This document shows positions 1,943 through 64,000 of a DNA stretch of 64,000 nucleotides, piece after piece. Origin of the DNA: Bacilli bacterium. Its GTDB lineage: Bacteria > Bacillota_I > Bacilli_A > RF39 > UBA660. Position numbers and translations under genes: made by a program. Location of the stretch: NCBI GenBank assembly GCA_017410525.1, contig JAFQQQ010000002.1, positions 205,591 to 269,590 on the forward strand, written 5' to 3'. The notes under the pieces were generated by a model. It saw only the letters and a program-made list of their open reading frames with translations, did no database searches and had not been told where the DNA came from. The stretch's first letter is position 1. The number at the start of each line of letters is the position of its first letter.

Positions 1943-3559
1943 ATGAGAGAAGTATATATATTTGGACATAAAAAGCCTGATACAGATTCAGTAACTTCAG
2001 CTATAGCCTTATCTTATTTGAAAAATCAGATAGGTATTAAATCTAAACCTGTGGTATTAGGAGATATAAATAAAGAGACTCATTTTGTGTTAAAATATTT
2101 TAATATAGAAAAACCAGAATACTTAGAAGATGTTAAACTACAAATAAAAGATTTAAATTATTATAAAGATTGTTACGTAAGTAAGTTTGACTCGATTAGA
2201 AAAACATATGACTATATGGGAAGCAAAAATATTACGGGTGTTCCTATTGTAGATAATGAAAAAAAGTTTATAGGTCTTCTAACTTCTAAAATGATTGGTT
2301 CCGAATTAATAAATGGTAATTTTACTAAATTAAATACATCCTATGATAATATTTTGGATGTGCTTAAAGGGGAAGAAATTCTAAGATTTGATGACGAAAT
2401 AAGTGGTAATATATTAGCTGCTTCTTTTAGAAGTACAACTATTTTAAATACAGTAGAATTTAGAAAAGATACAATAATGATTATAGGAGATAGGCATAGC
2501 GTTATAGAAGCTGCGGTTAATAGTTATATAAAATTGTTAGTAATAGTAGGTAATTTAGAAATAAAAGAAGAACACTTATCTATTGCTAGACAAAATAAGG
2601 TAAATATTATAAGAACTCATTTTGATACATTTCATACAGCTAAATTGATAGGTTTATCTAATTATGTAGATAATTTACTTACTGATACTAGAACTATTAG
2701 TTTTAACGAAAATGATTACTATGATGATTTTAAAGATAAAAGTGTAAAATTAGGGCACAATAACTATCCAGTAATAGATGATAGTGGAATATGTTTAGGA
2801 CTTATAAGAATTACTGATATTAAAAATATGAATAGAAAACAAGTAATACTTGTAGATCATAATGAGGCTGTTCAAAGTATTGATGGGCTTGATGAAGCAG
2901 AAATATTAGAAATAATAGATCACCACAATATTAGTTCATTAACAACTAAGATGCCAATCAATTTTAGAAATATGACAGTAGGTAGTACTAATACAATTAT
3001 TTATTCGATATTTAATGAAAGTAATATAAATATTCCAAGTGACATTGCTGGTATTATGTTAAGTGGTATTATTTCTGATACATTAAAGTTTACTAGCCCA
3101 ACAACTACTGAATATGATAAATATGTAGCTTATAGACTTGCAGATATTGCTCAAATTAACATAGATGTATATTCTAATAAAATGTTTAAAGCGGGAACTG
3201 ATTTAAAGGGAAAAACAATTCAAGAAATTATTCAAGGGGATATGAAAATATATGAATCTAATAATGAAAGAATTGCTATATCACAAGTAATAACTTTAAA
3301 TTCAGAAGATATATTAGAAAAACGAGAAGAATATATTAAGAAAATAAATGAGATGAAAGAAAATAGAGGTTACGATATAATGGTAGTATGTGTAACTGAT
3401 ATAATTAAGGACGGTTCATATATATTCTTTGATGAATCAAGTAAAAGTGAGATCGCTAACGCGTTTGGATTTGAAGAAATAGAACAAGGTTATTTTTTCT
3501 CAAAATGTTTATCTAGAAAAAAACAATTAGCGCCCCTAATTATGAGTGTAGTAAAATAG
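1943..3559 (+). CDS. CBS-domain-containing family II (DHH/DHHA2) inorganic pyrophosphatase
   Basis: GHKKPDTDSV at the N-terminus, DHNE and DHH motifs, a long CBS-like insertion, and a C-terminal DHHA2-like region. 538 aa fits the CBS-PPase subfamily. Confidence 0.8.
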   Translation: MREVYIFGHKKPDTDSVTSAIALSYLKNQIGIKSKPVVLGDINKETHFVLKYFNIEKPEYLEDVKLQIKDLNYYKDCYVSKFDSIRKTYDYMGSKNITGVPIVDNEKKFIGLLTSKMIGSELINGNFTKLNTSYDNILDVLKGEEILRFDDEISGNILAASFRSTTILNTVEFRKDTIMIIGDRHSVIEAAVNSYIKLLVIVGNLEIKEEHLSIARQNKVNIIRTHFDTFHTAKLIGLSNYVDNLLTDTRTISFNENDYYDDFKDKSVKLGHNNYPVIDDSGICLGLIRITDIKNMNRKQVILVDHNEAVQSIDGLDEAEILEIIDHHNISSLTTKMPINFRNMTVGSTNTIIYSIFNESNINIPSDIAGIMLSGIISDTLKFTSPTTTEYDKYVAYRLADIAQINIDVYSNKMFKAGTDLKGKTIQEIIQGDMKIYESNNERIAISQVITLNSEDILEKREEYIKKINEMKENRGYDIMVVCVTDIIKDGSYIFFDESSKSEIANAFGFEEIEQGYFFSKCLSRKKQLAPLIMSVVK

Positions 3560-11167: not shown

Positions 11168-11752
11168 ATGAAAATAGTTTTAGCGACAACATCAAAATTT
11201 AAAAATGAGATAATGGATACAGTAGGTATCAAACATTCTATGATTGAAAGTGATTTTAATGAAGATTTAGTTAGTGAAAAAAATGTATATGAATACGTAA
11301 AGAAATTAGCGCTAGGTAAAGCAAGTAGTGTTAAAGAAAAAGTAAATAATTCTATAATTATAGGTCTTGATACTATTAACTATGTAGATGGTATTATTCA
11401 AGAAAAACCTAAAGATTTAAATGATGCTAGAAAAAATATAGAAATGTGTAGAAATAAGACTACTAAAGTAATAACTGGTATATGTATTATTGATCAAAAA
11501 ACTAATGAAATAATAAATACATATGCAGAGACTAAAGTAACTTTAAGAGATATAGATGATATAGATATTGATTATTATATGGAAAATGAACCTAATATTA
11601 TGTATGCGTCTGGATTTATACTTGAAACTATATTATCTAATTTTATAGATAAAATAGAAGGTAGTTACTATAATATATTAGGAGTACCAGTTGAAATAAT
11701 ATATAAATATATTAATGATATGGGATATAATTTAAAGGATATGGAGGAATAA
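11168..11752 (+). CDS. maf: Maf-family nucleoside triphosphate pyrophosphatase
   Basis: MKIVLATTS...GLDTI...GSYYNILGVP pattern typical of Maf/YhdE. Confidence 0.8.
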   Translation: MKIVLATTSKFKNEIMDTVGIKHSMIESDFNEDLVSEKNVYEYVKKLALGKASSVKEKVNNSIIIGLDTINYVDGIIQEKPKDLNDARKNIEMCRNKTTKVITGICIIDQKTNEIINTYAETKVTLRDIDDIDIDYYMENEPNIMYASGFILETILSNFIDKIEGSYYNILGVPVEIIYKYINDMGYNLKDMEE

Positions 11753-11754
11753 TT

Positions 11755-12084
11755 GTGGAACAAATATATAATAAATTAGTTAGGGATAATATACCAGAAA
11801 TAATAGAATCTAACGGAGAAAAACCTATAATAAGTATATTAGATGATAATAGATATAAAGAAGAATTAGAGAAAAAGTTATATGAAGAATATTTAGAAGT
11901 AATAGATTCTAGTTATAGTAGTAGAATAGAAGAATTAGCTGATATGTTAGAAGTCATTAGTGCTCTTGCTAAATTAGAAGATAAGACTTTGGATGATGTA
12001 GTGGAAGTAGCTAAAGAGAAAGTAAAAAAAAGAGGAGCTTTTGATAAAAAAATATTTTTAGAGAAGGTTATAAGCGATAAATAG
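11755..12084 (+). CDS. MazG-like / phosphoribosyl-ATP-pyrophosphohydrolase-like NTP pyrophosphohydrolase
   Basis: YNKLVRDNIPEII start and EELADMLEV helix pair. GTG start with a GGAGG RBS. Confidence 0.65.
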   Translation: MEQIYNKLVRDNIPEIIESNGEKPIISILDDNRYKEELEKKLYEEYLEVIDSSYSSRIEELADMLEVISALAKLEDKTLDDVVEVAKEKVKKRGAFDKKIFLEKVISDK

Positions 12085-12173
12085 ATTTCTTTGAATGTAG
12101 AAATCTTTTTATAATAATTTGATTTTTAATTTAAACCATGATAGTATAATAGTCAATTTAAATGGGGGATATT

Positions 12174-13415
12174 ATGAATGAAAAATACTTAATTATTAAT
12201 GCTGGTAGTTCATCTTTAAAATTTTCTTTATATGAAATTCCAGAAGTAAAAGAAATTGTAAATGGTTGCGTAGAAAAAATAGGAAATGAAGATAGTTTTT
12301 ATACTTTAAAATATGACGATAAAAAAGAAGAAAAAGTAAAAGTAATTATGAATCATACTCAAGCTGTAGAAACTATGCTTTATGAGTTGTTAATAAATAA
12401 TTTTATAAGTGATGTTAATGAAATAAAAGGAGTAGGACATAGAGTACTACATGGTGGAGAAAAATATTTTGATTCAGTTGTAATTGACGATGAAGTTATA
12501 AACGATATAGTCGATTTAACTAAATTAGGGCCACTTCACCACCCAGGTAATTTATCAGGAATACTTGCTATGCAAAAAGCAATACCACATATACCACAAA
12601 TAGCTGTATTTGATACTTCTTTTCATCAAACAATAAATGAAGAAAATTATATATATCCTATACCATACTCTTGGTATAATGAAAATGGAGTAAGAAAATA
12701 TGGCTTTCATGGGACTAGTCATAAATATATTACGGAAACTATGCAACAATATTTAGATAAAAAAGATGTTAACTTAATAATTTGCCATATTGGTAGTGGA
12801 GCTAGTATGTCTGCAATAAAAAATGGTAAAAGCTGTGATACAACAATGGGTTTAACTCCACTAGATGGACTTATGATGGGTACTCGTTCAGGCTCTATTG
12901 ATCCATCAATTATTGAATATATTTGTAAAGAAAGAAATTTAACTGTATCTGAAGTTACTAATATTTTAAATAAAGAAAGCGGTTTAAAAGGAATAAGTGG
13001 CGTAAATGATTTCAGAGATGTAACAGCTTTAGCTAAACAAGGAAATCATAATGCAAAATTAGCTATAAAATTATTTGAAAAATCAATAGTTAAATATATC
13101 GCGCAATATTATTTTGAATTAAATGGTGATGTAGATGCTATTATATTTACTGCAGGTGTAGGAGAAAATATGTCCTACGTTAGAGAAGATATAGTTAATC
13201 TTATTTCAAAACCAATGGGTATAAAAATTAATAAAGAAATTAATGATAACATTGCTAAGTTTAAGCAATATCAAAGTGGTGTTATAACAACAGATGATTC
13301 TAAAATTAAAGTAATGGTTATACCTACTAATGAAGAATTAATGATATTAAAGGATACTGTTAGATTAACTAAAAAATCAAAAGATTTAAATAAAGAGAAA
13401 AAATTAACTAAATAA
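12174..13415 (+). CDS. ackA: Acetate kinase
   Basis: INAGSSSLKF, HRVLHGG, FDTSFH, GFHGTSH and GVGEN motifs. I prefer the ATG at 12174 (GGGGGA RBS) over 12162. Confidence 0.95.
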   Translation: MNEKYLIINAGSSSLKFSLYEIPEVKEIVNGCVEKIGNEDSFYTLKYDDKKEEKVKVIMNHTQAVETMLYELLINNFISDVNEIKGVGHRVLHGGEKYFDSVVIDDEVINDIVDLTKLGPLHHPGNLSGILAMQKAIPHIPQIAVFDTSFHQTINEENYIYPIPYSWYNENGVRKYGFHGTSHKYITETMQQYLDKKDVNLIICHIGSGASMSAIKNGKSCDTTMGLTPLDGLMMGTRSGSIDPSIIEYICKERNLTVSEVTNILNKESGLKGISGVNDFRDVTALAKQGNHNAKLAIKLFEKSIVKYIAQYYFELNGDVDAIIFTAGVGENMSYVREDIVNLISKPMGIKINKEINDNIAKFKQYQSGVITTDDSKIKVMVIPTNEELMILKDTVRLTKKSKDLNKEKKLTK

Positions 13416-13436
13416 TAATATTTTAAGGAGGGAGAT

Positions 13437-14075
13437 ATGAAAGTAATTGAGTTGGAAGAAAAATATATTTTAGAATATATAAAATATATGATTTCTAGTT
13501 TTAAAACAATACCTATAGAAATAAATAATGCTAAATATCATCATAATACAAGTTATTCTGATGTACCTTTGGTTTTAAAACAAGGTATTTTGTCGGTGTC
13601 AGAATTAAATAGATTAGGTATAAAAAAATATTCTCCTGAAATATTAAATTTATGGAGTGACATAGAGTCACATATTAATGGTATAGATTCAATATCATTA
13701 TCTGTAGTTGGTTTAAAAGATTTATATGTAGATGAATTTGAATATGATCCGTTTATACCAACAAAAGTAGATTTGAATATTTCAAGTGATATATCTACAC
13801 TAAGATCAAGTATACATTATGGAAATGAATTTTTATGTTATGAAAATATAGGAATTGATAAAATAAAATCAATTGATATAAGATTACTAGAATTAATTGA
13901 AAAAAGAAAAGATTTTACAATAAAAGATATAATAAATAAATATAATTGTTTAAAGGATGTTGCATTAGCAATTAAAGAAAATAACTTAGATATTCCTTTT
14001 AGAGAAATGTCTAATGATAATTGTGCATTAGATATAACTAAAGTGTCAGAGATGCCTAAATTAATTTTAAAATAA
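13437..14075 (+). CDS. Hypothetical protein
   Basis: 212-aa ORF with a GGAGGGAG RBS. Terminator CAAATGAAA/TTTCATTTG plus T-run lies just after the stop. No family recognised. Confidence 0.55.
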   Translation: MKVIELEEKYILEYIKYMISSFKTIPIEINNAKYHHNTSYSDVPLVLKQGILSVSELNRLGIKKYSPEILNLWSDIESHINGIDSISLSVVGLKDLYVDEFEYDPFIPTKVDLNISSDISTLRSSIHYGNEFLCYENIGIDKIKSIDIRLLELIEKRKDFTIKDIINKYNCLKDVALAIKENNLDIPFREMSNDNCALDITKVSEMPKLILK

Positions 14076-39912: not shown

Positions 39913-39989
<77 letters not shown>

Positions 39990-40003: not shown

Positions 40004-40080
40004 GGCCGGTTGGTGAAGCGGCTTAACACACATGCCTTTCACGCATGCATTCACGGGTCCGAATCCCGTACCGGTCACCA
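40004..40080 (+). tRNA. tRNA-Glu (anticodon UUC)
   Basis: Acceptor GGCCGGT/ACCGGTC, anticodon stem CATGC/GCATG with loop CTTTCAC, T-arm GGGTCCGAATCCC, CCA encoded. Confidence 0.9.
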
Positions 40081-40090
40081 TATGTTAATT

Positions 40091-40119
40091 AACCCTTGAT
40101 TTTCAAGGGTTTTTATTTT
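40091..40119 (+). terminator. Terminator after tRNA-Glu
   Basis: AACCCTTGA TTT TCAAGGGTT followed by TTTATTTT. Confidence 0.7.
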
Positions 40120-40254
40120 GTCGTTTGAGTTTTGGTCTTGTTTTTGGTCTTGTAACTCGTTTTTTTTTTGAACTTTTTTATTTCCTTTTGTCAATATAAA
40201 ATAAAAAACGAAAAAAACATTGAAAAAAAGATCAAAAATATAGAAGTTTTTAAA

Positions 40255-40351
40255 TGGTGACCGGTAAGAAACCCGGACCCACTTATAGCTATAGTGAATA
40301 CCTGCGTGAGTGTGTGTTAAGATTTGATAAAATAAATTGACCTCTCGCTTA
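40255..40351 (-). repeat. Inverted, internally deleted, decayed copy of the tRNA-Ile(3' half)/tRNA-Glu pair (copy 1)
   Basis: The reverse complement reads TAAGCGAGAGGTC...CTTAACACACACTCACGCAGGTATTCAC...GGGTCCGGGTTTCTTACCGGTCACCA. This aligns block by block with 39949-40080 (TAAGCGTGAGGTC...CTTAACACACATGCCTTTCACGCATGCATTCACGGGTCCGAATCCCGTACCGGTCACCA). Confidence 0.75.
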
Positions 40352-40418
40352 TTTAAAAAAAGTTGATATTTTTTTCTTTTGTGATATAATATAAGAAATT
40401 TTTGTAGGGGGATAATTT

Positions 40419-40700
40419 ATGAAAGAAATCACGTTTTATAGAACATATAGTTATGGTGGTATGGAAGGTAGAAACAAAGAAGTGAGAAATTTTGAAACAG
40501 TAGAGTTAGCTGTTCAAGATGCTCTTAAAGATACTTGGAATGACCAATTTAAATTATATAAAGTAAAAATGATATTTGATGGAAAAATAACAGAAGAAGA
40601 AAAGTACATAGAACCTTTAGTGTGTGGTAGAGATTTAATTTCTGATAATCCATTGAATAAATTAAATTTAGAATCTTTAACTAAACCAAAAAGAAAATAG
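40419..40700 (+). CDS. Hypothetical protein (island ORF)
   Basis: 93-aa ORF with a GGGGGA RBS and an upstream TTGATA...TATAAT promoter. No family recognised. Confidence 0.5.
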   Translation: MKEITFYRTYSYGGMEGRNKEVRNFETVELAVQDALKDTWNDQFKLYKVKMIFDGKITEEEKYIEPLVCGRDLISDNPLNKLNLESLTKPKRK

Positions 40701-40784
40701 TGTTGTATCTTGATTTTTAGATTTTATTTAGTAGTTAACGTTTGTCAAAAAATTTTTAAAAAAACATAAAAAGGAGTTTCTGTA

Positions 40785-41345
40785 ATGAAAGAAAAATTAT
40801 TTAATACAAGTGATGGTATAAAATATAAATTCTCAAGATTTTATATTATTAAAAATAATTATTTATTTAGTACTAGTAATGCTAATTTAGGTCATAATTT
40901 AAAAACTTGTTGTTGTATAAAAAAGTTAGGTTCAAATGTTCGTCCTAAAATTTATTTAGATATAAAAAAGGATAATAAGATAATCATGAAAAACAAACTT
41001 ATAGGTGATTACCAAGCATTAATGGATTTTATAGTGGAACACCAGAATGATTTTATATTTATAAAAGGTTTTAGTAGAGCTAGTATGGCTGAATTTATAG
41101 CAATGCTTAATATCAAAAAGCAGATGAATATTAAACCTGTAAAATTTAAAAATAAAATATTAGAGGCACAATACGAAAGACATTTACTAACAAAAGAACA
41201 ACGCATTGAAGAATTAAATAAAAAATTAGAAAATGGCGCAGAAGTTGATAGTGCTGAGCAATATATGAAAATTACCAATTCAGTATTTGGTATAAATAGA
41301 TATAAGTCTAGACAAAAAATTATACAATTAAGAAAAAATAGTTAG
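40785..41345 (+). CDS. Hypothetical protein (island ORF)
   Basis: 186-aa ORF with an AAAGGAG RBS and a lysine-rich C-terminal helical region. No family recognised. Confidence 0.5.
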   Translation: MKEKLFNTSDGIKYKFSRFYIIKNNYLFSTSNANLGHNLKTCCCIKKLGSNVRPKIYLDIKKDNKIIMKNKLIGDYQALMDFIVEHQNDFIFIKGFSRASMAEFIAMLNIKKQMNIKPVKFKNKILEAQYERHLLTKEQRIEELNKKLENGAEVDSAEQYMKITNSVFGINRYKSRQKIIQLRKNS

Positions 41346-41541
41346 GCTAAATAACTATTTTTTGTTTTAGTCTTATTTTGGTCTTGTGGTTTGGTCTTGT
41401 AAATGGTTACTATTTGTTAAAATTATCAAAATAAACAGTAACAAAAAATGATAAAACAGTAACACGAAATCCCTTTGTTTTTAAGGCAATATGGCATTAG
41501 CCCTTTATTTTCAATAATTTTCTAAAAATAGAAGTTCACAT

Positions 41542-41558
41542 TCCCGTACCGGTCACCA
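41542..41558 (+). repeat. Direct repeat of the tRNA-Glu 3' end (candidate attR-type scar)
   Basis: TCCCGTACCGGTCACCA is identical to 40064-40080. The flanks are also related (TTCAC before; TATGTTAATTA versus TTTATGAATTA after). Confidence 0.8.
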
Positions 41559-41605
41559 TTTATGAATTAGAAACCATTTTATATGGTTTTTTTCTTTATA
41601 TAATT

Positions 41606-41709
41606 GTGAACGCATTGCGTGGTGTGAGTGATTAAGCCTTATATGGTTTTGAGTAAGTATTAATACTAAAATAACTGAATGGAATGAACCTGAATAGACC
41701 TCTCGCTTA
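41606..41709 (-). repeat. Inverted decayed copy of tRNA-Ile 3' half plus tRNA-Glu 5' part (copy 2)
   Basis: The reverse complement reads TAAGCGAGAGGTCTATTCAGGTTCATTCCATTCAG...GGCTTAATCACTCACACCACGCAATGCGTTCAC. The genuine sequence is TAAGCGTGAGGTCGATGGTTCAAGTCCATTCAG...GGCTTAACACACATGCCTTTCACGCATGCATTCAC. It shares the T->A change with copy 1. Confidence 0.7.
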
Positions 41710-41771
41710 AATTAATAATTTATGTTATAATTAAATTGTCATATAAATGATAAGTTGTAAGGAGGAAATAC

Positions 41772-42419
41772 ATGAATAATACTATAGTAACATATGAAAC
41801 ATTCCATGGAAGTGCGAAGAAGATAGCTAATATAATTTCTGATAAATTAAATTGCAAATGTATTAATATAGATACACCTTTTGAAGCTGAAGATTTAAAA
41901 GAAATAGATAATATAATATTAGTATTTAACTTTAGAGGGCCATATACTGCTCAATTAACTAAATTATATTTAAATAGAGTTAAAGAACAGTTAAAAAATA
42001 AAAATGTAATTTTAGTAGGTGAAGGATTATTTTCAGAAAAAGAATTCCCTGTAGTAGCAGATGAAATATACAAAAATAACCCATCAAAAACATTTAACAA
42101 ATTTTTTGTTAATGGACAATTAAGAATGGAAACATTATTTCCAGAAGAAAGAGCTCTACTTAAAAAGTTTAGTGAAATAACTGGTATGGAAATAAAAGAT
42201 ATGGGAGAACTTGATTTGAAGAAAGCAGAAGAAGTTGCTAATGAAATTGAAAGATTGATTGAAACGGATGAATTTAAGACTCCAATAGAAAATGAAACAA
42301 ATGAAAATCAAGGAACAAAGTGGGTTTGTCCAGTATGTGGGTATATCCACTATGGAGATAATCCACCAGAAAAATGTCCTTTGTGTGGAGTACCTAAAGA
42401 ACTTTTTAGAAAAGAATAA
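41772..42419 (+). CDS. Flavodoxin-like domain protein with a C-terminal rubredoxin-type zinc/iron ribbon
   Basis: N-terminus IVTYETFHGSAKKIA (flavodoxin-like). C-terminus WVCPVCGYIHYGDNPPEKCPLCG (CxxC...CxxC rubredoxin knuckles). Confidence 0.6.
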   Translation: MNNTIVTYETFHGSAKKIANIISDKLNCKCINIDTPFEAEDLKEIDNIILVFNFRGPYTAQLTKLYLNRVKEQLKNKNVILVGEGLFSEKEFPVVADEIYKNNPSKTFNKFFVNGQLRMETLFPEERALLKKFSEITGMEIKDMGELDLKKAEEVANEIERLIETDEFKTPIENETNENQGTKWVCPVCGYIHYGDNPPEKCPLCGVPKELFRKE

Positions 42420-42471
42420 AAAAAGTTTGAATAATTAAAATATAAGTAGTATAATTTAATTATTCTTTTAT

Positions 42472-57190: not shown

Positions 57191-58015
57191 ATGGTTTTTA
57201 AGGTGGAAAAAAATAAGAATTATACAGTAATGAGTAATTACCATTTGAGAGATAAAAACTTATCTTTGAAAGCAAAAGGCTTATTATCATTTATGCTTAG
57301 TTTACCAGATGATTGGGATTACTCATTAAATGGTTTATGTTCTATATGTAAAGAATCTGAAGGAGCAATAAAAAGTACATTAAAAGAGTTAAAAGATAAT
57401 GGATATTTGGTTATAGAAAAAGTACGAGGGGAAAAGGGATATTTTGAATATAACTATATTATTTATGAACATCCATATACATTAGAAAAGGAGAAAAACA
57501 ATCCAGAGGGTAAAAATCCACCTGTGGATTATCCAATGGTGGAAAATCATACCCAAATAAATACTAATGAACAAAGTATTAAAGAACAAATAGATAGAAT
57601 AGATAAAACCATAAATGAAGATGAGGAAAAAATTTCTTCATCTTTTTCTTTAGAAGAACATCACGCTATAACTAAAGATTTAGTTGAAAGAGAATATTTA
57701 GCAGAAGATGATGTAGAACTATACAAGTATGATAAATTTTTTAAGGAAATTTTAAAAAAACAAAAATTTACTGATGTAATTTCTATAACTCACTATATTA
57801 TTTCTAGTGTTAAAAGTCGGCATTTTATAGATGAGTTTGATAATAAGATAGAGAATAAATTTGGATATTTAAAAACATCAATTGAAAATAATATTGAAAT
57901 GTTTAAAAGACGTGAAATAGAATGGGATGATGAATTAGGATGGTTTAGGGAAGTGGATAACGATGATAAAGAATTAGATTCTTTTTATGACGATTTTGAT
58001 TATGAAATAACATAA
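57191..58015 (+). CDS. Replication-initiator-like winged-helix protein (HTH_36/RepA_N-like N-terminus)
   Basis: YTVMSNYHLRDKNLSLKAKGLLSFMLSLPDDWDYSLNGL...LKELKDNGYLVIEKVR matches the pattern common in element-borne Rep/DnaD-like proteins. The family name is from memory. Confidence 0.6.
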   Translation: MVFKVEKNKNYTVMSNYHLRDKNLSLKAKGLLSFMLSLPDDWDYSLNGLCSICKESEGAIKSTLKELKDNGYLVIEKVRGEKGYFEYNYIIYEHPYTLEKEKNNPEGKNPPVDYPMVENHTQINTNEQSIKEQIDRIDKTINEDEEKISSSFSLEEHHAITKDLVEREYLAEDDVELYKYDKFFKEILKKQKFTDVISITHYIISSVKSRHFIDEFDNKIENKFGYLKTSIENNIEMFKRREIEWDDELGWFREVDNDDKELDSFYDDFDYEIT

Positions 58016-58046
58016 AAAAAGACTAAAATCAGTCTTTAGGAATATG

Positions 58047-58445
58047 TTACTTCTCAATCAATTTTTCGGCAAAACTATGTAGCATTTCAAGGTTTATATC
58101 GCTTAAATTTTTTGCGATTTCAAATATGCTATATAAATTTGAATTTTTTCTGATAATGATGGCATCAACATTTTTTAAGTCATCTTCAGAAAATGTACTT
58201 CCAGTCTGGTTAAATATAGCTTCTTTTAATTGAAAAGAATCTCTAAAACCTAAACCTTTACTAATTTTTTTTAATGTTATACTGCTTATGTTACCGCTAT
58301 GCTTTTTAGACTCTAAATCATTAATTACCATTCTTGAAATTTCGCATTTATCTGCAAATTCTCTAGCACTCATCGTTGGATGAAATGATTTACGATAATT
58401 ATTAATGTAAGAGCCAAGTGCATCTACAAATGCTTTGTCTTCCAT
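58047..58445 (-). CDS. XRE-family HTH regulator (divergent from the downstream + strand genes)
   Basis: MSAREFADKCEISRMVINDLESKK HTH. A minus-strand gene facing a 436-bp divergent control region. Confidence 0.65.
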   Translation of the reverse strand: MEDKAFVDALGSYINNYRKSFHPTMSAREFADKCEISRMVINDLESKKHSGNISSITLKKISKGLGFRDSFQLKEAIFNQTGSTFSEDDLKNVDAIIIRKNSNLYSIFEIAKNLSDINLEMLHSFAEKLIEK

Positions 58446-58687
58446 ATCCTATCGCCTTTCTTTTGTTCTTTTACTACATTACCATTTTACACTTTTTTTG
58501 AATTTTTGTCCACATAACGCTATGAAATTCATTTTTAAAAAATTAAATTATGAAAATGGACATTTTTAATATTATTTGTTATGATAATAATGTAGTAAAT
58601 AGTCTTTAAAAAAATATGGGAGGATAGAAATGTTTAAATCAAAACTTGTGATGCTTTCATTTCTGACCAAAGAAAGGAGGAGCAAGA

Positions 58688-58855
58688 TTGCAAGAGCAAG
58701 AAGGTTCTAATGTTGTTAAAAGCATCAAGATTGAAGTGATAAGTGGGGAAAAAAAAGGTGTAAACTTATTAACGCAGTTTAGTGAGGTAGAAACAATTAG
58801 AATATTAAAGCAGTGTCTTATATCGTTAGAAAGGGAGGCATCACAAAACCAGTAG
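58688..58855 (+). CDS. Possible small ORF (55 aa, TTG start)
   Basis: My translation is MQEQEGSNVVKSIKIEVISGEKKGVNLLTQFSEVETIRILKQCLISLEREASQNQ, with RBS AAAGGAGGAGCAAGA. A competing 26-codon ATG ORF (58630-58710, RBS GGGAGGA) overlaps it. Confidence 0.35.
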   Translation: MQEQEGSNVVKSIKIEVISGEKKGVNLLTQFSEVETIRILKQCLISLEREASQNQ

Positions 58856-58881
58856 TACCGATTAAGGAAGGAAAATGATAT

Positions 58882-59193
58882 ATGACTAAAGAAAGTAATG
58901 AAGTAGTATCAGAAGTAAATGCAGTAATTAGTAGTATTAGAAGTAAGGTTCAACAAGAAGAAAAAATTACAGTAGATGAAATTGATAATTTATCTACTAC
59001 TGTTAATCAACTAATCACTGATTATAGAACAGTATTAAATGACTATCTTGTAATGAACTCTTTAGCAGTAAAACATGATAAGTTTTTAGAAGTAATTGGT
59101 ATTATAGAATTTGCTTCTGCAAATGATGTTAGAATTTTAGATCAAACAATTAAATCCTTAGAAAAGGTTGTTAAAACAATAAAGCAGAGGTAA
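58882..59193 (+). CDS. Hypothetical helical protein
   Basis: 103-aa ORF with RBS AAGGAAGGAA. Terminator ACTGTGTGGA/TCTACACAGT plus T-run at about 59203-59238. Confidence 0.55.
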   Translation: MTKESNEVVSEVNAVISSIRSKVQQEEKITVDEIDNLSTTVNQLITDYRTVLNDYLVMNSLAVKHDKFLEVIGIIEFASANDVRILDQTIKSLEKVVKTIKQR

Positions 59194-59282
59194 ATAAAAT
59201 ATACTGTGTGGAAAAAAATTCTACACAGTTTTATTTTTGGATATTGACATTTATAAAAAAATAATGTATCCTTTTATTGTAA

Positions 59283-59302
59283 GTGGCAGTTCAAACTGAC
59301 AC
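59283..59302. repeat. Palindrome-containing site, left member of an inverted pair
   Basis: GTGGCAGTTCAAACTGACAC matches the reverse complement of 59520-59539 at 18 of 20 positions. It is embedded in a 10-bp outer inverted repeat, CTTTTATTGT (59271-59280) / ACAATAAAAG (59301-59310). Confidence 0.75.
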
Positions 59303-59519
59303 AATAAAAGAAGGAGGGGATTGAAAAATTTGTAATAGGAGAGAGGTATAGAGTTTTTAATGAAGTATCCGAAAATCATGGAAACTATCTCACAATTATC
59401 AACATAAATAAAGACTTAATATATTATTTATTTGATGGTAGCGATCAGGTTCAATGTTTTTCAAGTAGTAGTGAATTTGCAGTTGACCTTATTAAGTTGG
59501 TCTAATTTTTTTAAAATAA

Positions 59520-59539
59520 CTGTCAGTTTGAACTGACAC
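59520..59539. repeat. Palindrome-containing site, right member, just upstream of the 59553 ORF RBS
   Basis: CTGTCAGTTTGAACTGACAC. The core GTCAGTTTGAACTGAC is a perfect 16-bp palindrome. Confidence 0.75.
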
Positions 59540-59552
59540 GAAAGGAACTACG

Positions 59553-59813
59553 ATGAAAAAAATTAAGAAAGAAAGATCAGTACCAAAATGGGTTTTACGA
59601 AATCTACGATTGTATGGGAATTGTTGTTGTGGATACGATTTAATAAAAAAATATGGTGAAAAGAAATTATTAGAAAAATTAGTTAAATTTGGATTTGAAT
59701 GTAGTTTAAGAGTTGTACCAGATCCAGATGCAAGAACAAGAAGAAAAATGAAATATCCACCATCAGCTTACTATATTTTAGAAGTTGATAAGGTACTGAT
59801 TACTAACAAATAA
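59553..59813 (+). CDS. Hypothetical 86-aa protein in the antitoxin position upstream of MazF
   Basis: MKKIKKERSVPKWVLRNLRLYGNCCCGYDLIKKYGEKKLLEKLVKFGFECSLRVVPDPDARTRRKMKY... Its stop TAA (59811-59813) abuts the MazF TTG start. I can see no AbrB/RHH/MazE-like pattern. Confidence 0.55.
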   Translation: MKKIKKERSVPKWVLRNLRLYGNCCCGYDLIKKYGEKKLLEKLVKFGFECSLRVVPDPDARTRRKMKYPPSAYYILEVDKVLITNK

Positions 59814-60194
59814 TTGTTTTTATCAGTAAAGAAAGGTGAAGTTTATTTAATCGATTTGAAGGATACATATTCAAATGTCCAATGTGGGAAAAGACCTTGT
59901 TTAGTCATTCAAAACGATTATGGTAATGAATATTCACCGACAACAATAGTAGTTCCCATTACAACAAAAATTAAGAAGACTTATATGCCTGTTCATGTAG
60001 TTATTGAAAAGGGAAGTTATTCTAATAAGGATCGAGAAATGGTTTTATGTGAATGTATCTTAACAGTATCAAAAGATCAAATAATTAATCATTTAAGAAC
60101 TTTTGATGAAGATACGATGCAGAAAATTGATAAGGCTTTAGAAGTATCATTAGGAATTGGCGTGAAAGGGAGGAATCAAAAATTAAAAAGTTAA
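59814..60194 (+). CDS. mazF: MazF/PemK-family endoribonuclease toxin
   Basis: KKGEVYLIDLKDTYSNVQCGKRPCLVIQNDYGNEYSPTTIVVPITT matches the PemK signature. The TTG start is translationally coupled to the upstream ORF. Confidence 0.8.
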   Translation: MFLSVKKGEVYLIDLKDTYSNVQCGKRPCLVIQNDYGNEYSPTTIVVPITTKIKKTYMPVHVVIEKGSYSNKDREMVLCECILTVSKDQIINHLRTFDEDTMQKIDKALEVSLGIGVKGRNQKLKS

Positions 60195-60265
60195 AAGAGA
60201 CGTATAATGATATTTTTAGTAAAGGTATTGAAAATTATTGGAAGTCTGAAGGTTGTAATAGTAGG

Positions 60266-60832
60266 ATGCAAAAATACTTTAAATTTGCAAACTTACTAGA
60301 TAGTATTAATGTAGTTTTAAAATATATAATGATTATTTGTCTTAATATTATTGCAACAATGACAATTTTTAAACTATCTTCAGGAATTTATTTGACAGAA
60401 ATGGTTAAAGAAACAACAACTTTAACTGTAATGGATATTATTTTTCAACAAGGAGGCTTTATAGTTATTGGTTGTTTATATTTTGTTTTAGGGTTAAGAT
60501 ACGGAAAACGAAATAAAGACAGTTTTGGTAAGATAATGTATAAAGTTTTATATGGTATGCCAATGTATTATTTAATATATCTAAATATGTGTTTGATGGA
60601 TGGTTTAACAGGAATAATGATATTCTTAATTCTTTATTTAATTATTGTTAATATAAACTTTTTAATAAGTAAAAGAATAAAAGAGTTATATAATGTTGCA
60701 ACAGGTAATATTGGAACAGAAGAATATGAAAAAGAATTAGAAGAAGTAGATGTAGTATTTACAAAACAAGAAGTTGAAAATAAGGATAATAAAAAAGGAA
60801 GAGGAGATAAAAAATATGCAAGGAAGCGTTAA
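60266..60832 (+). CDS. Hypothetical membrane protein (about 4 TM) with a charged C-terminal tail
   Basis: Hydrophobic segments [42 protein letters not shown] and [18 protein letters not shown]. No family recognised. Confidence 0.5.
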
Positions 60833-61037
60833 ATGGTTTAGTGATAAATTAGGATATGGATTTATTGTTTGTGAAGATTTAGATGAGGAAGTATTTGTTC
60901 ATTTTAGCGAAATACAAATGGATGGATATAAGTCTTTAAAAGAAGGAGATATTGTAAGTTTTGATTATGACACAGAAGTTGGAAAAGCTAAAAATGTCAA
61001 TGTTATCAAAAATGAAAAGTTAGAAACTTCTAAGTAG
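60816..61037 (+). CDS. csp: Cold-shock protein (CspA family)
   Basis: [50 protein letters not shown] (RNP1-like KGYGFI, RNP2-like VFVHF). ATG at 60816 preferred (GGAAGAGGAG RBS). Confidence 0.85.
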
Positions 61038-61507
61038 TGAATTTTATTGGTGCAGTAGTGCATTATTCCGTTGACTGTGTAGATGAATCTAAAACAGCAG
61101 AAAACGGAAGAGAAATTTGTAGTCAGTATAGACCACTTGTAGAAAAAAGAATTAAAAGATTATTAGCAACACCAATGAACTCTGCAAGTATTGTACTTTT
61201 TACATCTGGAAATAGAAGTAAAAATTCTTTTGAAGAAAAACTAATACAAAGAGTTGCTTGGAATGATGATCAGATAACTAATTTTATGAATAACATTTTG
61301 TTATTAGAACAATATGATAAAATGGCAGGTTTATATTTGAAACTTAAATATATTTATGATAAAACTGATAAACAAATTGCAAAAAAAATGAAAGTAACAG
61401 ATAGAACTTTAAGAACTTATAAAACAAGGGCGTATTTTCAAATTGCAGTGTGGTCTAATAAAGTTGAATATATTTATAACAAAACTTTTCATTTTAATAT
61501 TGATTGA
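61037..61507 (+). CDS. Sigma-70 region-4-like HTH protein (element-type sigma/regulator)
   Basis: C-terminus KTDKQIAKKMKVTDRTLRTYKTRAYFQIA resembles a sigma region 4.2 HTH. GTG start abuts the csp stop. Confidence 0.5.
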   Translation: MNFIGAVVHYSVDCVDESKTAENGREICSQYRPLVEKRIKRLLATPMNSASIVLFTSGNRSKNSFEEKLIQRVAWNDDQITNFMNNILLLEQYDKMAGLYLKLKYIYDKTDKQIAKKMKVTDRTLRTYKTRAYFQIAVWSNKVEYIYNKTFHFNID

Positions 61508-61563
61508 TATATTTGATGTGGAAATATCCACATCCTGCTACATACAAAGGAGTTGAATATTTT

Positions 61564-62712
61564 ATGAAAAAAAGAAATATTTTAATTATTAGTGCATTAA
61601 TAGTAGTATTAGTATCTATTGGTATATATTTATTTATACAACATACAAATAAAATAACTTTAAAGGAATCTAATTTTATTTTTGAACTTGGGGATAAAGT
61701 TCCTTTTGAAGTTGAATATTATTTAAAAGATAAGGATAAAGATAAAATATCAAATTCAAAAATAAGATTTGAAAATGATGCAATGTTTGATACTTCAAAC
61801 AATGAAATTAGAACAATAGATTCAAAGTTTTTAGATGTTGGAAAATATAAAATGTATATTGAGTATAAGGATACTAAGTATCACTTTAATATTAAAGTGA
61901 AAGATACAACAGCACCTAATTTTATTGATTTTATGGATGAAATTATATTAGAACAAAATGCTGTAAATGTAGATTTGTTAAAATATTATGAAGCATCTGA
62001 TTTAAGTAGTTTAACGATAAGCATTGAAAGTGATTATGATATTGAAAAAACTGGTGAATATAAAGCAATAATTAAATCTAAAGATGTTTATGATAATATA
62101 GTTACAAAAGATGCAACAATTAAAGTAATTTCTTATGATGATTTAAAAAATACAGAAGTAACGAAATGCTTAGATGGTACAATATTTAAAAGTGAAAAAA
62201 GAATTGAATCAGAAAAGAAAAAAATAGAAACTAATCAATCTAGTTCTAATAATAATACAACCCCTAAAATAGAAATAGTTGATAATAACAACAATAGTAA
62301 TAATTCAAAGAATGAATCAAATAACAATAGTTCTAGTTCATCATCTAATAATACTCCAACTATTGTTAATGCTACATATAGAACAGATATTTCAAATGAA
62401 ATAGTAAATAAGATAAATGAATATCGTAAAAATAATGGTCAAACTGTGTTACCTGTAACTTCTGAAGCACAAGCTGAAGCTGACAGGAGAGCAAAGGAAA
62501 TTGTATCAAATCCTACTCATGAAGGTTCTTCTTATGGTTTTGGGGAAAATATAGGTGGAGGAGGAATTGGTACTGATTTCTTCACATTATGGAAAGAAAG
62601 TTTTTCCCACAATAACGCAATGTTAAGAGAGCAAAATACAGCAATAGCAGTAAGTATATATCAATATAATAATCAATGGTATGCAGTTGCTGTTTTTAGA
62701 ATGAATTATTAA
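61564..62712 (+). CDS. Membrane-anchored secreted protein with a C-terminal CAP/SCP (YkwD-like) domain
   Basis: N-terminal TM (ILIISALIVVLVSIGIYLFI), a middle beta-rich region, an Asn/Ser low-complexity linker, then YRKNNG...AEADRRAKEI...HEGS...GENIG...WKESFSHNNAML. ATG at 61564 preferred (AAGGAG RBS). Confidence 0.7.
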   Translation: MKKRNILIISALIVVLVSIGIYLFIQHTNKITLKESNFIFELGDKVPFEVEYYLKDKDKDKISNSKIRFENDAMFDTSNNEIRTIDSKFLDVGKYKMYIEYKDTKYHFNIKVKDTTAPNFIDFMDEIILEQNAVNVDLLKYYEASDLSSLTISIESDYDIEKTGEYKAIIKSKDVYDNIVTKDATIKVISYDDLKNTEVTKCLDGTIFKSEKRIESEKKKIETNQSSSNNNTTPKIEIVDNNNNSNNSKNESNNNSSSSSSNNTPTIVNATYRTDISNEIVNKINEYRKNNGQTVLPVTSEAQAEADRRAKEIVSNPTHEGSSYGFGENIGGGGIGTDFFTLWKESFSHNNAMLREQNTAIAVSIYQYNNQWYAVAVFRMNY

Positions 62713-62747
62713 AATTTCTCAATATGGGAAATTTTTTTATGCAAGAA

Positions 62748-62769
62748 ATTATGTGGAATTCCACATAAT
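62748..62769. repeat. Perfect 22-bp palindrome ATTATGTGGAATTCCACATAAT
   Basis: Read directly and self-complementary over 62748-62769. Half-site TTATGTGGAA recurs at 62792-62806 and, inverted, at 62844-62858. Confidence 0.85.
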
Positions 62770-62791
62770 ATTTTTTATGTAGAACTTTTAG

Positions 62792-62858
62792 TTATGTGGA
62801 ACTTTTATAAAAAACATCTTGTAATTAAGGCGTTTCTATTATAAAAAGTTCCACATAA
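62792..62858. repeat. 15-bp perfect inverted repeat pair TTATGTGGAACTTTT / AAAAGTTCCACATAA, 37 bp apart, abutting the recombinase gene 3' end
   Basis: 62792-62806 and 62844-62858 are exact reverse complements. Confidence 0.85.
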
Positions 62859-62865
62859 TTTTTTT

Positions 62866-63867
62866 CTATTTCATATTATTTTTCAACCAACTATCTAAAT
62901 TGTCTTTTTTAGTATTACTATATTTACTTTTAGTGTTTATCGTTTCTGAATTTCTAAGAATTTCTTGTCTTTGCTTTTTCGAATCTGGAGTTGCATATAT
63001 CTCTGTTGATGTTATTGAACTATGACCTAGAAATTCTTTAACATATAAAAGCGGAGTTCCATTATTATACAAATGTGTTGCTTTGGTATGTCTAAAACTA
63101 TGAGGATGATAATTTCCATTGAATTTATCTGGATATATTAAATTTAATTTTAAAACTATTTTTTTAATCATTTTATTAATACTATATCTTGAATATTTTT
63201 TCTTATAATTAGAATAAAATAAATAATCATCTCCATAGTTAATATAAAATTCTTTTAAATATTTATTGATTAACTTTACTAATTCTTGACTGATAGGTAC
63301 AATTCTAGTTTTATTACCTTTGCCATATAAAGTAATACTTGCATTATCAGATAAATTTAAGTCATCTAATTTAATATTTATTAATTCAGTTACTCTTGCC
63401 CCTGTTTCATAAAGTACACATATCATCGTTAATTTTTTTAAATCTTTGATACTGTTTAAATAATTTATCATTGTTTTTATTTCATTTTCTGTAAAATATG
63501 ATATCATTTTATTAGGAACCTTTTTATTCTTAATACTAAGAATTTGAGAACAAGATCCAAATAAATCAGGTTCGTTTATTTGGACATACTTGTAAAATGA
63601 TTTTATACAAGCAAGTCTTTGGTTCCTAGTTTGTATTGAAACAGTTCTATCTGTTTCTAACCAATCTAGAAATTGGATTATTACTTCCTTAGTAATTGAT
63701 TCAATTTCTATTTTATTTGGTTTAATATTTTTTTCTTTATTCATAAATTCTAACAACAAATAAAATGTAGTTGAATATGATGATTTAGTGTTCATTGAAT
63801 AATTACATTCACCAATTAAATAACTTGTAAGAAATTCTTGAACTAATTTACTAAATCTATTAGTCAC
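62866..63867 (-). CDS. Tyrosine site-specific recombinase (XerC/D / phage-integrase family)
   Basis: SAM-like N-terminal domain. ETGARVTEL (catalytic Arg context), HSFRHTKATHL (HxxR), LGHSSITSTEIYA (catalytic Tyr). GTG start. Confidence 0.85.
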   Translation of the reverse strand: MTNRFSKLVQEFLTSYLIGECNYSMNTKSSYSTTFYLLLEFMNKEKNIKPNKIEIESITKEVIIQFLDWLETDRTVSIQTRNQRLACIKSFYKYVQINEPDLFGSCSQILSIKNKKVPNKMISYFTENEIKTMINYLNSIKDLKKLTMICVLYETGARVTELINIKLDDLNLSDNASITLYGKGNKTRIVPISQELVKLINKYLKEFYINYGDDYLFYSNYKKKYSRYSINKMIKKIVLKLNLIYPDKFNGNYHPHSFRHTKATHLYNNGTPLLYVKEFLGHSSITSTEIYATPDSKKQRQEILRNSETINTKSKYSNTKKDNLDSWLKNNMK

Positions 63868-64000
63868 CTAAATCACCCCCTCATATAAACTTTTAGAAAA
63901 AGTATCATTAGCATCGATAATTTTATTTTTATTATAATCAGTAAAATGAAGATAGTATTCTGTTTCATGAATACTTTTATGTCCCATATATTTATAAAGA
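63868..64000 (-). CDS. C-terminal end of a second tyrosine recombinase (5' part beyond the window)
   Basis: My reverse-complement translation is ...LYKYMGHKSIHETEYYLHFTDYNKNKIIDANDTFSKSLYEGVI*. It shows the LGH...T..YxH catalytic-Tyr motif. The TAG stop (63868-63870) abuts the GTG of the downstream recombinase. Confidence 0.7.
   Translation of the reverse strand, partial: LYKYMGHKSIHETEYYLHFTDYNKNKIIDANDTFSKSLYEGVI

Follow-up and report, generated by a model that had tools for sequence, protein, structure and literature searches.

Directly behind a tRNA-Glu(UUC) gene, a 1.5-kb islet was found in a 64,000-nucleotide stretch of DNA of a Bacilli bacterium of the RF39 lineage (the window; contig JAFQQQ010000002.1, positions 205,591 to 269,590). 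We are highly confident that this islet constitutes a site-specific insertion, which carries attachment (att) sites of a phage family and encodes no recombinase. We also consider it likely that it is a non-autonomous cassette of the cis-mobilizable element (CIME) kind, which derives from phage att sites, holds a promoter, cargo and a terminator between the att arms and employs an integrase in trans. The chance that the islet is still mobilizable appears slightly worse than even.

An earlier note on this DNA had reported a 17-nt repeat at the 3'-end of the tRNA-Glu gene and again further downstream. The 17-mer TCCCGTACCGGTCACCA is indeed present at both places (40064-40080 and 41542-41558). A third copy was absent from the window when up to two mismatches were allowed, and none of 100 shuffles of the window gave a match. 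The two copies are 1478 bp apart and their identity reaches 18 nt, one base (T) beyond TCCCGTACCGGTCACCA. The note had also considered the flanks of the copies as related. Such relatedness is present but minor, as most of the 28 nt that agree at 89% belong to the repeat itself, and upstream of copy 2 a TTCAC pentamer is the sole likeness to the tRNA body.

For comparison, we scanned one genome per species with the upstream membrane-protease gene RseP as anchor. The scan returned 78 loci, all of them from metagenome-assembled genomes labelled Bacilli, 'Tenericutes', Erysipelotrichaceae and similar. In L004, the closest locus, where RseP is 93% identical and the backbone agrees at about 90% of the DNA, the 17-mer is present as a single copy. 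Here, the tRNA-Glu gene is directly followed by TTTATGAATTAGAAACC... and a flavodoxin-rubredoxin gene, which is the sequence that lies right of repeat copy 2 in the window. Since L004 shows the empty site, for which the earlier note had advised to look, positions 40081-41558 of the window (1478 bp) constitute an insertion. The expected empty attB junction reads ...GAATCCCGTACCGGTCACCATTTATGAATTAGAAACC and the expected circular (attP) junction ...AGAAGTTCACATTCCCGTACCGGTCACCATATGTTAATTAACCC. The islet is present in samples such as SRR12529065, ERZ28436109, ERZ28654771 and ERZ27298597.

The target and the two att ends of the islet comprise the following features:

40004..40080, plus strand: tRNA-Glu(UUC), the integration target, the last 17 nt of which are core copy 1 (ARAGORN; Rfam RF00005, 56.7 bits)
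40064..40081, plus strand: attL core, copy 1 of the 18-nt direct repeat TCCCGTACCGGTCACCAT (repeat search)
40091..40111, plus strand: hairpin/terminator AACCCTTGATTTTCAAGGGTT with T-run between core and P' arm, in the same place in phage attP
40134..40153, plus strand: P' arm with two GGTCTTGT repeats, the first of which starts 53 nt after the core
40154..40253, no strand assigned: T/A-rich spacer of the left end (cassette alignment)
41337..41359, plus strand: hairpin AATAGTTAGGCTAAATAACTATT with T-run, which opens the conserved right end and overlaps the stop codon of the second cargo gene
41369..41400, plus strand: P arm, consisting of AGTCTTAT, GGTCTTGT and GGTCTTGT
41405..41463, plus strand: second P-arm repeat set, GGTTACT (inverted) and AACAGTAAC twice, 21 nt apart
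41501..41517, plus strand: core-proximal box CCCTTTATTTTCAATAA, kept in cassettes and phage attP
41542..41559, plus strand: attR core, copy 2 of the 18-nt direct repeat TCCCGTACCGGTCACCAT (repeat search)

The GGTCTTGT tandems, which had been flagged in the earlier note, are real and correspond to the arm repeats that accompany a family of phage integrases. In the window, four copies of GGTCTTGT were counted (40134, 40146, 41380, 41393), always on the plus strand and always inside the islet. For the whole window, 0.59 occurrences were expected by chance; no shuffle reached four. The last repeat of the P arm ends 142 nt ahead of the CCCGTACCGGTCACCA core match (141 nt ahead of the 17-mer), and the repeat set at 41405..41463 occupies the position of a TTGACA pair in phage attP. 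Taken together, the empty site and the phage-type arm repeats support the proposal of the note that the repeats are an attL/attR pair of the tyrosine-integrase type. Its view of the islet as a remnant or satellite-type element in need of an integrase in trans is supported by the phage-type att sites and the absence of a recombinase.

Phage attachment sites and their integrases

The 22-mer TTGGTCTTGTTTTTGGTCTTGT (40132-40153), which contains the P' arm, was found in identical form in 16 stretches of IMG/VR viral contigs, the full lengths of which range from about 11 to 53 kb. The surroundings were AT-rich and phage-like in 15 of these stretches; the remaining one (L089) was GC-rich and resembles a chance match. 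In eight of the 16 stretches, the 22-mer followed a full or partial tRNA 3'-end, and several different tRNAs were involved. In 12 of the 16, it abutted or overlapped the 3'-end of a long integrase open reading frame (ORF) on the reverse strand, and the three representatives of these ORFs that were tested turned out to be tyrosine integrases (Pfam PF00589). No integrase ORF was located beside the 22-mer in L092, L093 and L094. In L092 and L093, the 22-mer stands behind a hairpin and ahead of a partial tRNA 3'-end, which corresponds to the layout of an attR side. One prophage contig (L085 and L092) carries the repeat pair at both att sites, at attL between the tRNA and the integrase gene and at attR about 190 bp ahead of 24 nt that repeat the end of the tRNA.

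Two unintegrated phage genomes (L114, L115) contain the integrase gene, attP and then lysin and holin genes on the other strand. Their attP consists of two to three GGTCTTGT, 140 nt, the core, 54-55 nt, two GGTCTTGT and the integrase stop codon. The 140-nt part holds a direct-repeat pair and a CTTTATTTTCAACAA-like box, and the 54-55-nt part holds a hairpin. When the right end of the islet was joined to its left end, the same order was obtained with spacings of 142 and 53 nt, and the alignment with L114 and L115 was collinear. The core of L115 (TCCCGTACGGGTCACCA) differs from the islet 17-mer in one of 17 bases, and that of L114, like that of L083/L088, is a tRNA-Glu-like variant.

The integrases of the GGTCTTGT-arm family comprise 380-450 amino acids and target the 3'-ends of various tRNAs including tRNA-Glu. 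Their N-terminal part shows the motif MPVYEEKEK...KQITRHNK. We compiled 99 homologues (P0033-P0131). Among them, each of the three frames is used to read the reverse complement of the arm motif, which results in the C-terminal tails KQDQKQDQ, KTRPKTRPK and NKTKNKTK. What is conserved is therefore the DNA and not the protein; some integrase ORFs stop before the motif. Variant tails such as KQVQKQVQ were also observed and imply variant arm sites. Conservation is higher in the first 60 residues of the integrases than in the remainder (median 53% vs. 35%; for L085 and L091 87% vs. 35%), and some homologues carry the arm-binding domain PF14657 as precomputed annotation. In the lambda and Tn916 systems, the core is flanked by arm-type sites, which are bound by the N-terminal domain of the integrase. 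We infer that in the phage family, too, a shared N-terminal integrase domain may bind the GGTCTTGT arm sites and that divergent core-binding and catalytic domains would choose the tRNA cores.

Regarding the cores of individual homologues, P0034 and P0035 belong to unintegrated phage attP sites with tRNA-Glu-like cores (three and one mismatches to the islet 17-mer). The target of P0043 is a tRNA-Ile and that of P0041 and P0038 another tRNA-like 3'-end. The search for integrases with a matching core, which the earlier note had recommended, succeeded in part: the arm-repeat integrase family was found, with L115 one mismatch away from the islet, and an exact core was not. A blastn search for the islet in the INPHARED phage collection was negative, a further pattern scan of IMG/VR returned nothing, and none of the C-terminal integrase tails matched the read-through peptide predicted from the left end of the islet.

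A small ORF of about 48 amino acids (...YPKSSTIHKLKCKIYYYNKKL...) was noticed directly before the P arm in the phage attP of L114 (4454-4603) and in L012 (5947-6093), where a P-arm-like locus lies beside a tRNA-Leu gene. The small ORF might be an excisionase.

Cassette relatives, cargo and integration site

The islet belongs to a family of cassettes with conserved ends. At the left end (about 340 bp), the core is followed by a hairpin, two GGTCTTGT, a stretch rich in T/A, an inverted pseudo-tRNA and finally the promoter. The right end (about 210 bp) opens with a hairpin and continues via the arm repeats, another repeat set and the core-proximal box to the core. Between such ends, the cargo differs:

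L005: same site, RseP 91% identical; two unrelated ORFs of 144 and 262 amino acids; second core copy with one mismatch
L103, cassette 1: metagenome contig; two GNAT acetyltransferases
L103, cassette 2: same contig, in tandem with cassette 1; an ORF of 174 amino acids
L007: same site; different cargo (not annotated); full left end
L119: same site; first cargo gene of the window (ORF93) at 95% identity; arm repeats GACCTTGT on both sides (2216-3160)
L002: backbone only 75.7% identical; cargo of the window at 99.5% identity

L103, which was the only match to an attL pattern, represents a tandem array in which the two cassettes stand on either side of a core copy with one mismatch. In L119, a decayed version of the small ORF found ahead of the P arm in phages takes the place of the second cargo gene (ORF186) at about 2800-2950.

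Several side observations concern the arm repeats. The variants co-vary: both arms of L119 are of the GACCTTGT type, and in L103 (2040-2300) the internal core has GATCTTGT on either side, in the right arm of cassette 1 as well as in the left arm of cassette 2. At its other end, on the left, cassette 1 has GGTCTTGT instead. In the window, the left arm has TGTCAAT/CATTGA at 40189-40223, where L002 (2890-2935) and L007 have GTTACTAT/TAGTTAC, and the right arm is of the GTTAC/GTAAC type. Because the short-repeat types differ between the left and the right arm, the two arms of the window possibly come from different parents.

The expression module and the cargo of the islet are composed as follows:

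40363..40390, plus strand: promoter-like site of the cassette, TTGATA, 16 nt, TG-TATAAT; 11 of 12 matches, extended -10 TG
40419..40700, plus strand: ORF93, 93 amino acids, an orphan of which only near-identical copies are known
40785..41345, plus strand: ORF186, 186 amino acids, member of a family of 32 protein clusters, without recombinase signature

These two ORFs between the repeats correspond to the earlier description, which had also credited both of them with promoters of their own. For ORF93 the strong promoter-like site bears this out, and a -10-like element is aligned at the same position in other cassettes; the promoter of ORF186 is weak. ORFs of at least 40 amino acids in 40081-41558 are limited to ORF93, ORF186 and one antisense ORF inside ORF186. 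For ORF93 and ORF186, no Pfam, PHROG, NCBIfam or PADLOC match above noise was obtained. The family of ORF186 is confined to uncultured Bacilli, and its homologues (57-68% identical) occur singly, in chromosomal surroundings of an ordinary kind from which cassette ends are absent. ORF186 alone was modelled with AlphaFold (pLDDT 77), and a fold search with this model revealed no significant structural neighbour. In Foldseek, it gave weak and non-significant matches to the cores of retroviral integrases (E = 0.039 at best, with a TM of about 0.23). When the islet was searched by tblastn with the phage integrases, nothing real was found; the best match (E = 0.057) was the arm motif read as protein. 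The sole recombinase that these queries detected in the window is an unrelated Xer-like gene (62866-63867), about 21 kb away. Taken together, the ORF list, the profile searches and tblastn indicate that the islet encodes no recombinase, as the note had stated when it called the islet integrase-less. The annotation by profile hidden Markov models and structure that it had suggested gave no recombinase either, by profiles for both ORFs and by fold for ORF186.

ORF186 had been considered as an RNase-H-like recombinase; this candidate was rejected on account of the non-significant scores and the ordinary chromosomal contexts of the homologues. In another islet-bearing contig (L003, at about 4325), ORF186 is broken after about 13 codons by unrelated DNA, which represents either an insertion or a chimeric assembly.

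Upstream of the promoter and downstream of the islet, remnants of inverted tRNA genes were detected, and the features of this region are:

40254..40325, minus strand: inverted, decayed copy of tRNA-Glu with a 13-nt insertion, not recognized as tRNA
40339..40351, minus strand: GACCTCTCGCTTA box, remnant of an inverted tRNA-Ile
41560..41771, plus strand: original attB flank, layout identical to the empty site of L004
41772..42419, plus strand: flavodoxin-rubredoxin gene, between tRNA-Glu and tRNA-Gln

The 3'-part of the inverted tRNA-Glu copy pairs with 40055-40081 (27 nt, 81%), and GACCTCTCGCTTA is, with one mismatch, the reverse complement of the anticodon/variable region of tRNA-Ile. A tRNA-Ile gene (39913-39989) precedes tRNA-Glu(UUC) in the window. 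The inverted tRNA-Glu/tRNA-Ile scar lies just upstream of the promoter in every cassette left end examined, with its tRNA-Glu part truncated in L005, L006 and L119. The attB flank contains a hairpin (41571-41589) and a promoter region, and in addition a second fragment of an inverted tRNA-Glu (41606-41638) and another GACCTCTCGCTTA box (41697-41709). Because the flank ahead of it carries this shorter scar (41606-41638, 41697-41709), the flavodoxin-rubredoxin unit seems to be an older cassette, one that has probably lost its arm repeats.

Two ideas on the inverted segments were rejected. A functional inverted core (invertible segment) does not agree with the tRNA-Glu-like segment being decayed differently in each relative and truncated in L005, and for an aberrant prophage excision as in lambda-gal/bio in a genome with inverted tRNAs (L013) the orientations do not fit. 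As further observations, the tRNA pair is inverted in L013, and L009 and L019 carry a partial inverted tRNA-Glu end beside foreign DNA.

In the window, the spacer between tRNA-Glu and tRNA-Gln extends from 40081 to 42471. The tRNA-Gln gene follows about 70-110 bp after tRNA-Glu in L008, L011, L015, L016 and L018, and in other relatives the spacer holds 0.2-2.6 kb of differing content: a small ORF that is lipoprotein-like by its N-terminus in L006, the flavodoxin-rubredoxin gene in L004, L005 and the window, and an orphan protein resembling a type II restriction enzyme in L010, L031 and L033. GNAT acetyltransferases also count among the inserts of this spacer. Judged from these layouts, the tRNA-Glu/tRNA-Gln spacer is an integration hot spot.

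The same tRNA-Glu site of L022 is occupied by a 2.1-kb element (11537-13682) with 24-nt repeat boundaries. It has its own tyrosine integrase (279 amino acids) of a different type and no GGTCTTGT tandems; since its integrase differs, a second integrase lineage targets the tRNA-Glu site. Concerning the target itself, the T-loop of tRNA-Glu(UUC) reads UCCGAAU with C at position 55, and this was the case in every related locus whose tRNA-Glu 3'-part was read. In tRNAs, a U (pseudouridine) at this position is nearly universal.

Elsewhere in the window, 57191-64000 constitutes a separate block that resembles a mobile element. By eye, a PemK/MazF-like toxin (59814-60194) and an XRE-like regulator were recognized in it, along with what may be a replication protein. 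The recombinase at 62866-63867 (minus strand) was confirmed by Pfam as a tyrosine recombinase, and the start of a second recombinase-like ORF is visible at the window edge. Inverted repeats of the TTCCACATAAT type are located at 62740-62860, and there are no GGTCTTGT sites in 57191-64000.

Explanations for the islet

According to the mechanism we propose, site-specific recombination as carried out by tyrosine integrases brought the cassette into the 3'-end of tRNA-Glu(UUC), and its ends are the two halves of a complete phage-type attP, the architecture and spacings of which are nearly those of temperate phages from uncultured gut Bacilli. Between the arms, a promoter preceded by the inverted tRNA scar is followed by one or two cargo genes and then by the terminator. 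The integrase, and probably an excisionase as well, would come from a co-resident or incoming phage, either in trans or, once that phage has integrated beside the islet, in cis. Since the islet encodes neither of the two, it would be mobile only via phage-supplied functions, and a cognate helper for its exact core is presumed. Tandem accretion as in L103 would be an expected by-product. The tandem array of L103 and the 99.5% identity of the cargo in L002, the backbone of which is only 76% identical, count as indirect evidence of excision or transfer.

A number of observations weigh against this mechanism. No phage with the exact 17-mer core was found, the five 17-mer matches in IMG/VR being chance or tRNA clusters, and none of five integrase homologues that were looked up has the exact islet core. 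By tblastn, the 64-kb window is devoid of an integrase of the GGTCTTGT-arm family. The left-end segment 40154-40325 (spacer and pseudo-tRNA) is only 73% identical to L002, and since the cargo is 99.5% identical to the same locus, the cassette ends are mosaic. The short repeats of the left arm of the window are also unlike those of its own right arm. Decayed relatives such as L006 with GCCCTTGT arms, cassette 2 of L103, which is devoid of a right end, and the flavodoxin unit, which is devoid of arm repeats, indicate that cassettes can become fixed and erode. Conserved tRNA genes lie at both ends of the block that the window has in common with L002, and the transfer between species could therefore be explained by homologous recombination free of any integrase. 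Finally, the model leaves unexplained how different cargo enters between identical ends.

Some of these observations would also be expected if the islet was an inert scar, that is, the remnant of an element of the phage-att family that recently lost its integrase, with vestigial att sites and no movement since. The missing integrase in islet and window, the failure to find an exactly cognate phage and the decaying relatives at the same site (L006, cassette 2 of L103, the flavodoxin unit) fit this scenario, which we nevertheless regard as rather unlikely. Both core copies agree at all 18 positions, the phage 22-mer recurs unchanged at the P' arm, and the distances from arm to core are kept within 2 nt. 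Moreover, at least five cassettes with unrelated cargo between the same ends and a tandem array were found, neither of which is predicted by a single deletion remnant. The cargo is not phage-like, and a promoter module stands in place of the integrase gene in every member.

Similarly, it appears improbable, to about the same degree, that the spacer contents were simply exchanged between species at a hot spot by homologous recombination via the tRNA genes and that the att repeats record one old integration and have no role in today's spread. Between L002 and the window, the block from tRNA-Ile to tRNA-Leu is 94.3% identical as compared with 75.7% for the backbone, and its ends coincide with tRNA genes. 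The flavodoxin region is 97.2% identical to L004 against about 90% for the backbone, and many different inserts occupy the spacer of related species. Such exchange explains neither the core copies between tandem cassettes nor the conserved phage-like arm geometry, nor that the empty/occupied polymorphism falls exactly at the 18-nt core. Homologous recombination is compatible with phage-mediated insertion and can coexist with it; it does not replace it.

That the islet is self-sufficient, with ORF186 or ORF93 acting as an unrecognized recombinase, is very improbable. Both ORFs defy annotation and the weak, non-significant Foldseek matches of ORF186 to retroviral integrase cores point in this direction, but there is no significant fold match and the homologues of ORF186 are single chromosomal genes apart from any cassette ends. 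In addition, L005 and L103 share the ends and have neither ORF, and L119 has ORF93 without ORF186.

A decayed tandem duplication of the tRNA-Glu gene, which the earlier note had named as the case that would overturn its view and for which the TTCAC pentamer upstream of both repeat copies might speak, has practically no probability: beyond the pentamer, tRNA homology ends at the 18-nt repeat, neither ARAGORN nor Rfam gives a tRNA match near 41542, copy 2 is embedded in a phage-type P arm that aligns to phage P arms, and as far as sequence comparison goes this explanation is refuted by the empty site in L004 and the phage attP alignment.

Relation to known systems

The phage-derived, integrase-dependent cassette, as we read the islet, bears on elements that are usually dismissed. 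Islands without integrase normally count as decay; here, the cis half of phage integration is kept with near-exact geometry around non-phage cargo. If such units are mobilized by phage integrases, they would form, within an uncultured gut lineage that has small genomes and has received little study, a minimal class of hitchers consisting of att sites and an expression module, and temperate phages could drive a traffic of gene cassettes without carrying the genes themselves. More tentatively, we suggest that uncultured gut Bacilli may have an integron-like cassette system built from lambda-style att sites, the small units of which, each enclosed by two attP halves, would be captured, stacked in arrays at tRNA-Glu and passed between species by integrases that are borrowed from temperate phages, be they resident or infecting; the spacer inserts, including the flavodoxin-rubredoxin gene, would then be fossil cassettes. 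The pairing of the GGTCTTGT arm site with the N-terminal integrase domain is testable in a large, previously uncharacterized family of about 90 protein clusters. When genomes of this kind are annotated, their tRNA-Glu/tRNA-Gln spacer should be regarded as a hot spot of integration.

Our literature searches on the arm motif and on RF39 combined with prophage, which did not directly query this phage att family or phage-att cassettes of the promoter-cargo-terminator type, yielded no prior description. As concepts, CIMEs, clusters of attC sites lacking an integrase (CALINs) and 'hitchers' resembling miniature inverted-repeat transposable elements (MITEs) are known (PMC5704250; PMC11389934).

The islet shares with a lambda-type attP the core between direct-repeat arm sites at fixed distances; in the phages, the integrase gene abuts the P' arm and a conserved N-terminal integrase domain accompanies the conserved arm repeat. 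As differences, the arm consensus is GGTCTTGT, the P' arm overlaps the 3'-end of the integrase ORF in the phages, and the attP of the islet is split around non-phage cargo with no integrase gene. A prophage is not present, since the P' arm is followed by the T/A-rich spacer, the inverted pseudo-tRNA and the promoter, and profile searches of the islet found no phage genes.

Integrative elements that use host Xer recombinases (integrative mobile elements exploiting Xer, IMEX), such as the CTX phage, also integrate with a recombinase that is encoded elsewhere. In contrast to their dif-like XerC/D sites, the islet has a tRNA 3'-end core and phage arm repeats.

[quoted passage not shown] They typically comprise 7-20 kb with integrase, regulatory and DNA-replication genes (PMC13376191), whereas the islet has 1.5 kb and two orphan ORFs without domains for integration, replication, regulation or packaging interference.

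CALINs are clusters of attC sites without an integron integrase (PMC11389934). Like these and like integron cassettes, the islet family consists of small units with one or two genes of mostly unknown function, which stand in tandem at one site, have no recombinase of their own and, for the islet probably, depend on a tyrosine recombinase in trans. However, the islet is bounded by copies of a tRNA 3'-end with phage-type arms and not by attC sites for IntI (no formal attC model was run), and each of the islet cassettes carries its own promoter.

CIMEs have lost their integration and transfer genes, retain attL and attR and accrete in tandem with incoming elements, as described for Streptococcus (Guedon et al., 2017; PMC5704250). 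Similarly, the islet has attL and attR at a tRNA 3'-end, lacks integrase and transfer genes and has a relative with tandem accretion (L103). In arm repeats, spacing and boxes, its att sites match the attP of the phage integrase family, the closest core of which (L115) has one mismatch in 17. In contrast to CIMEs, its parental att sites come from temperate phages and not from integrative and conjugative or integrative and mobilizable elements (ICEs/IMEs), and it is much smaller (1.5 kb). Moreover, the islet family is not simply a decayed parent but has a fixed promoter-cargo-terminator layout with interchangeable cargo.

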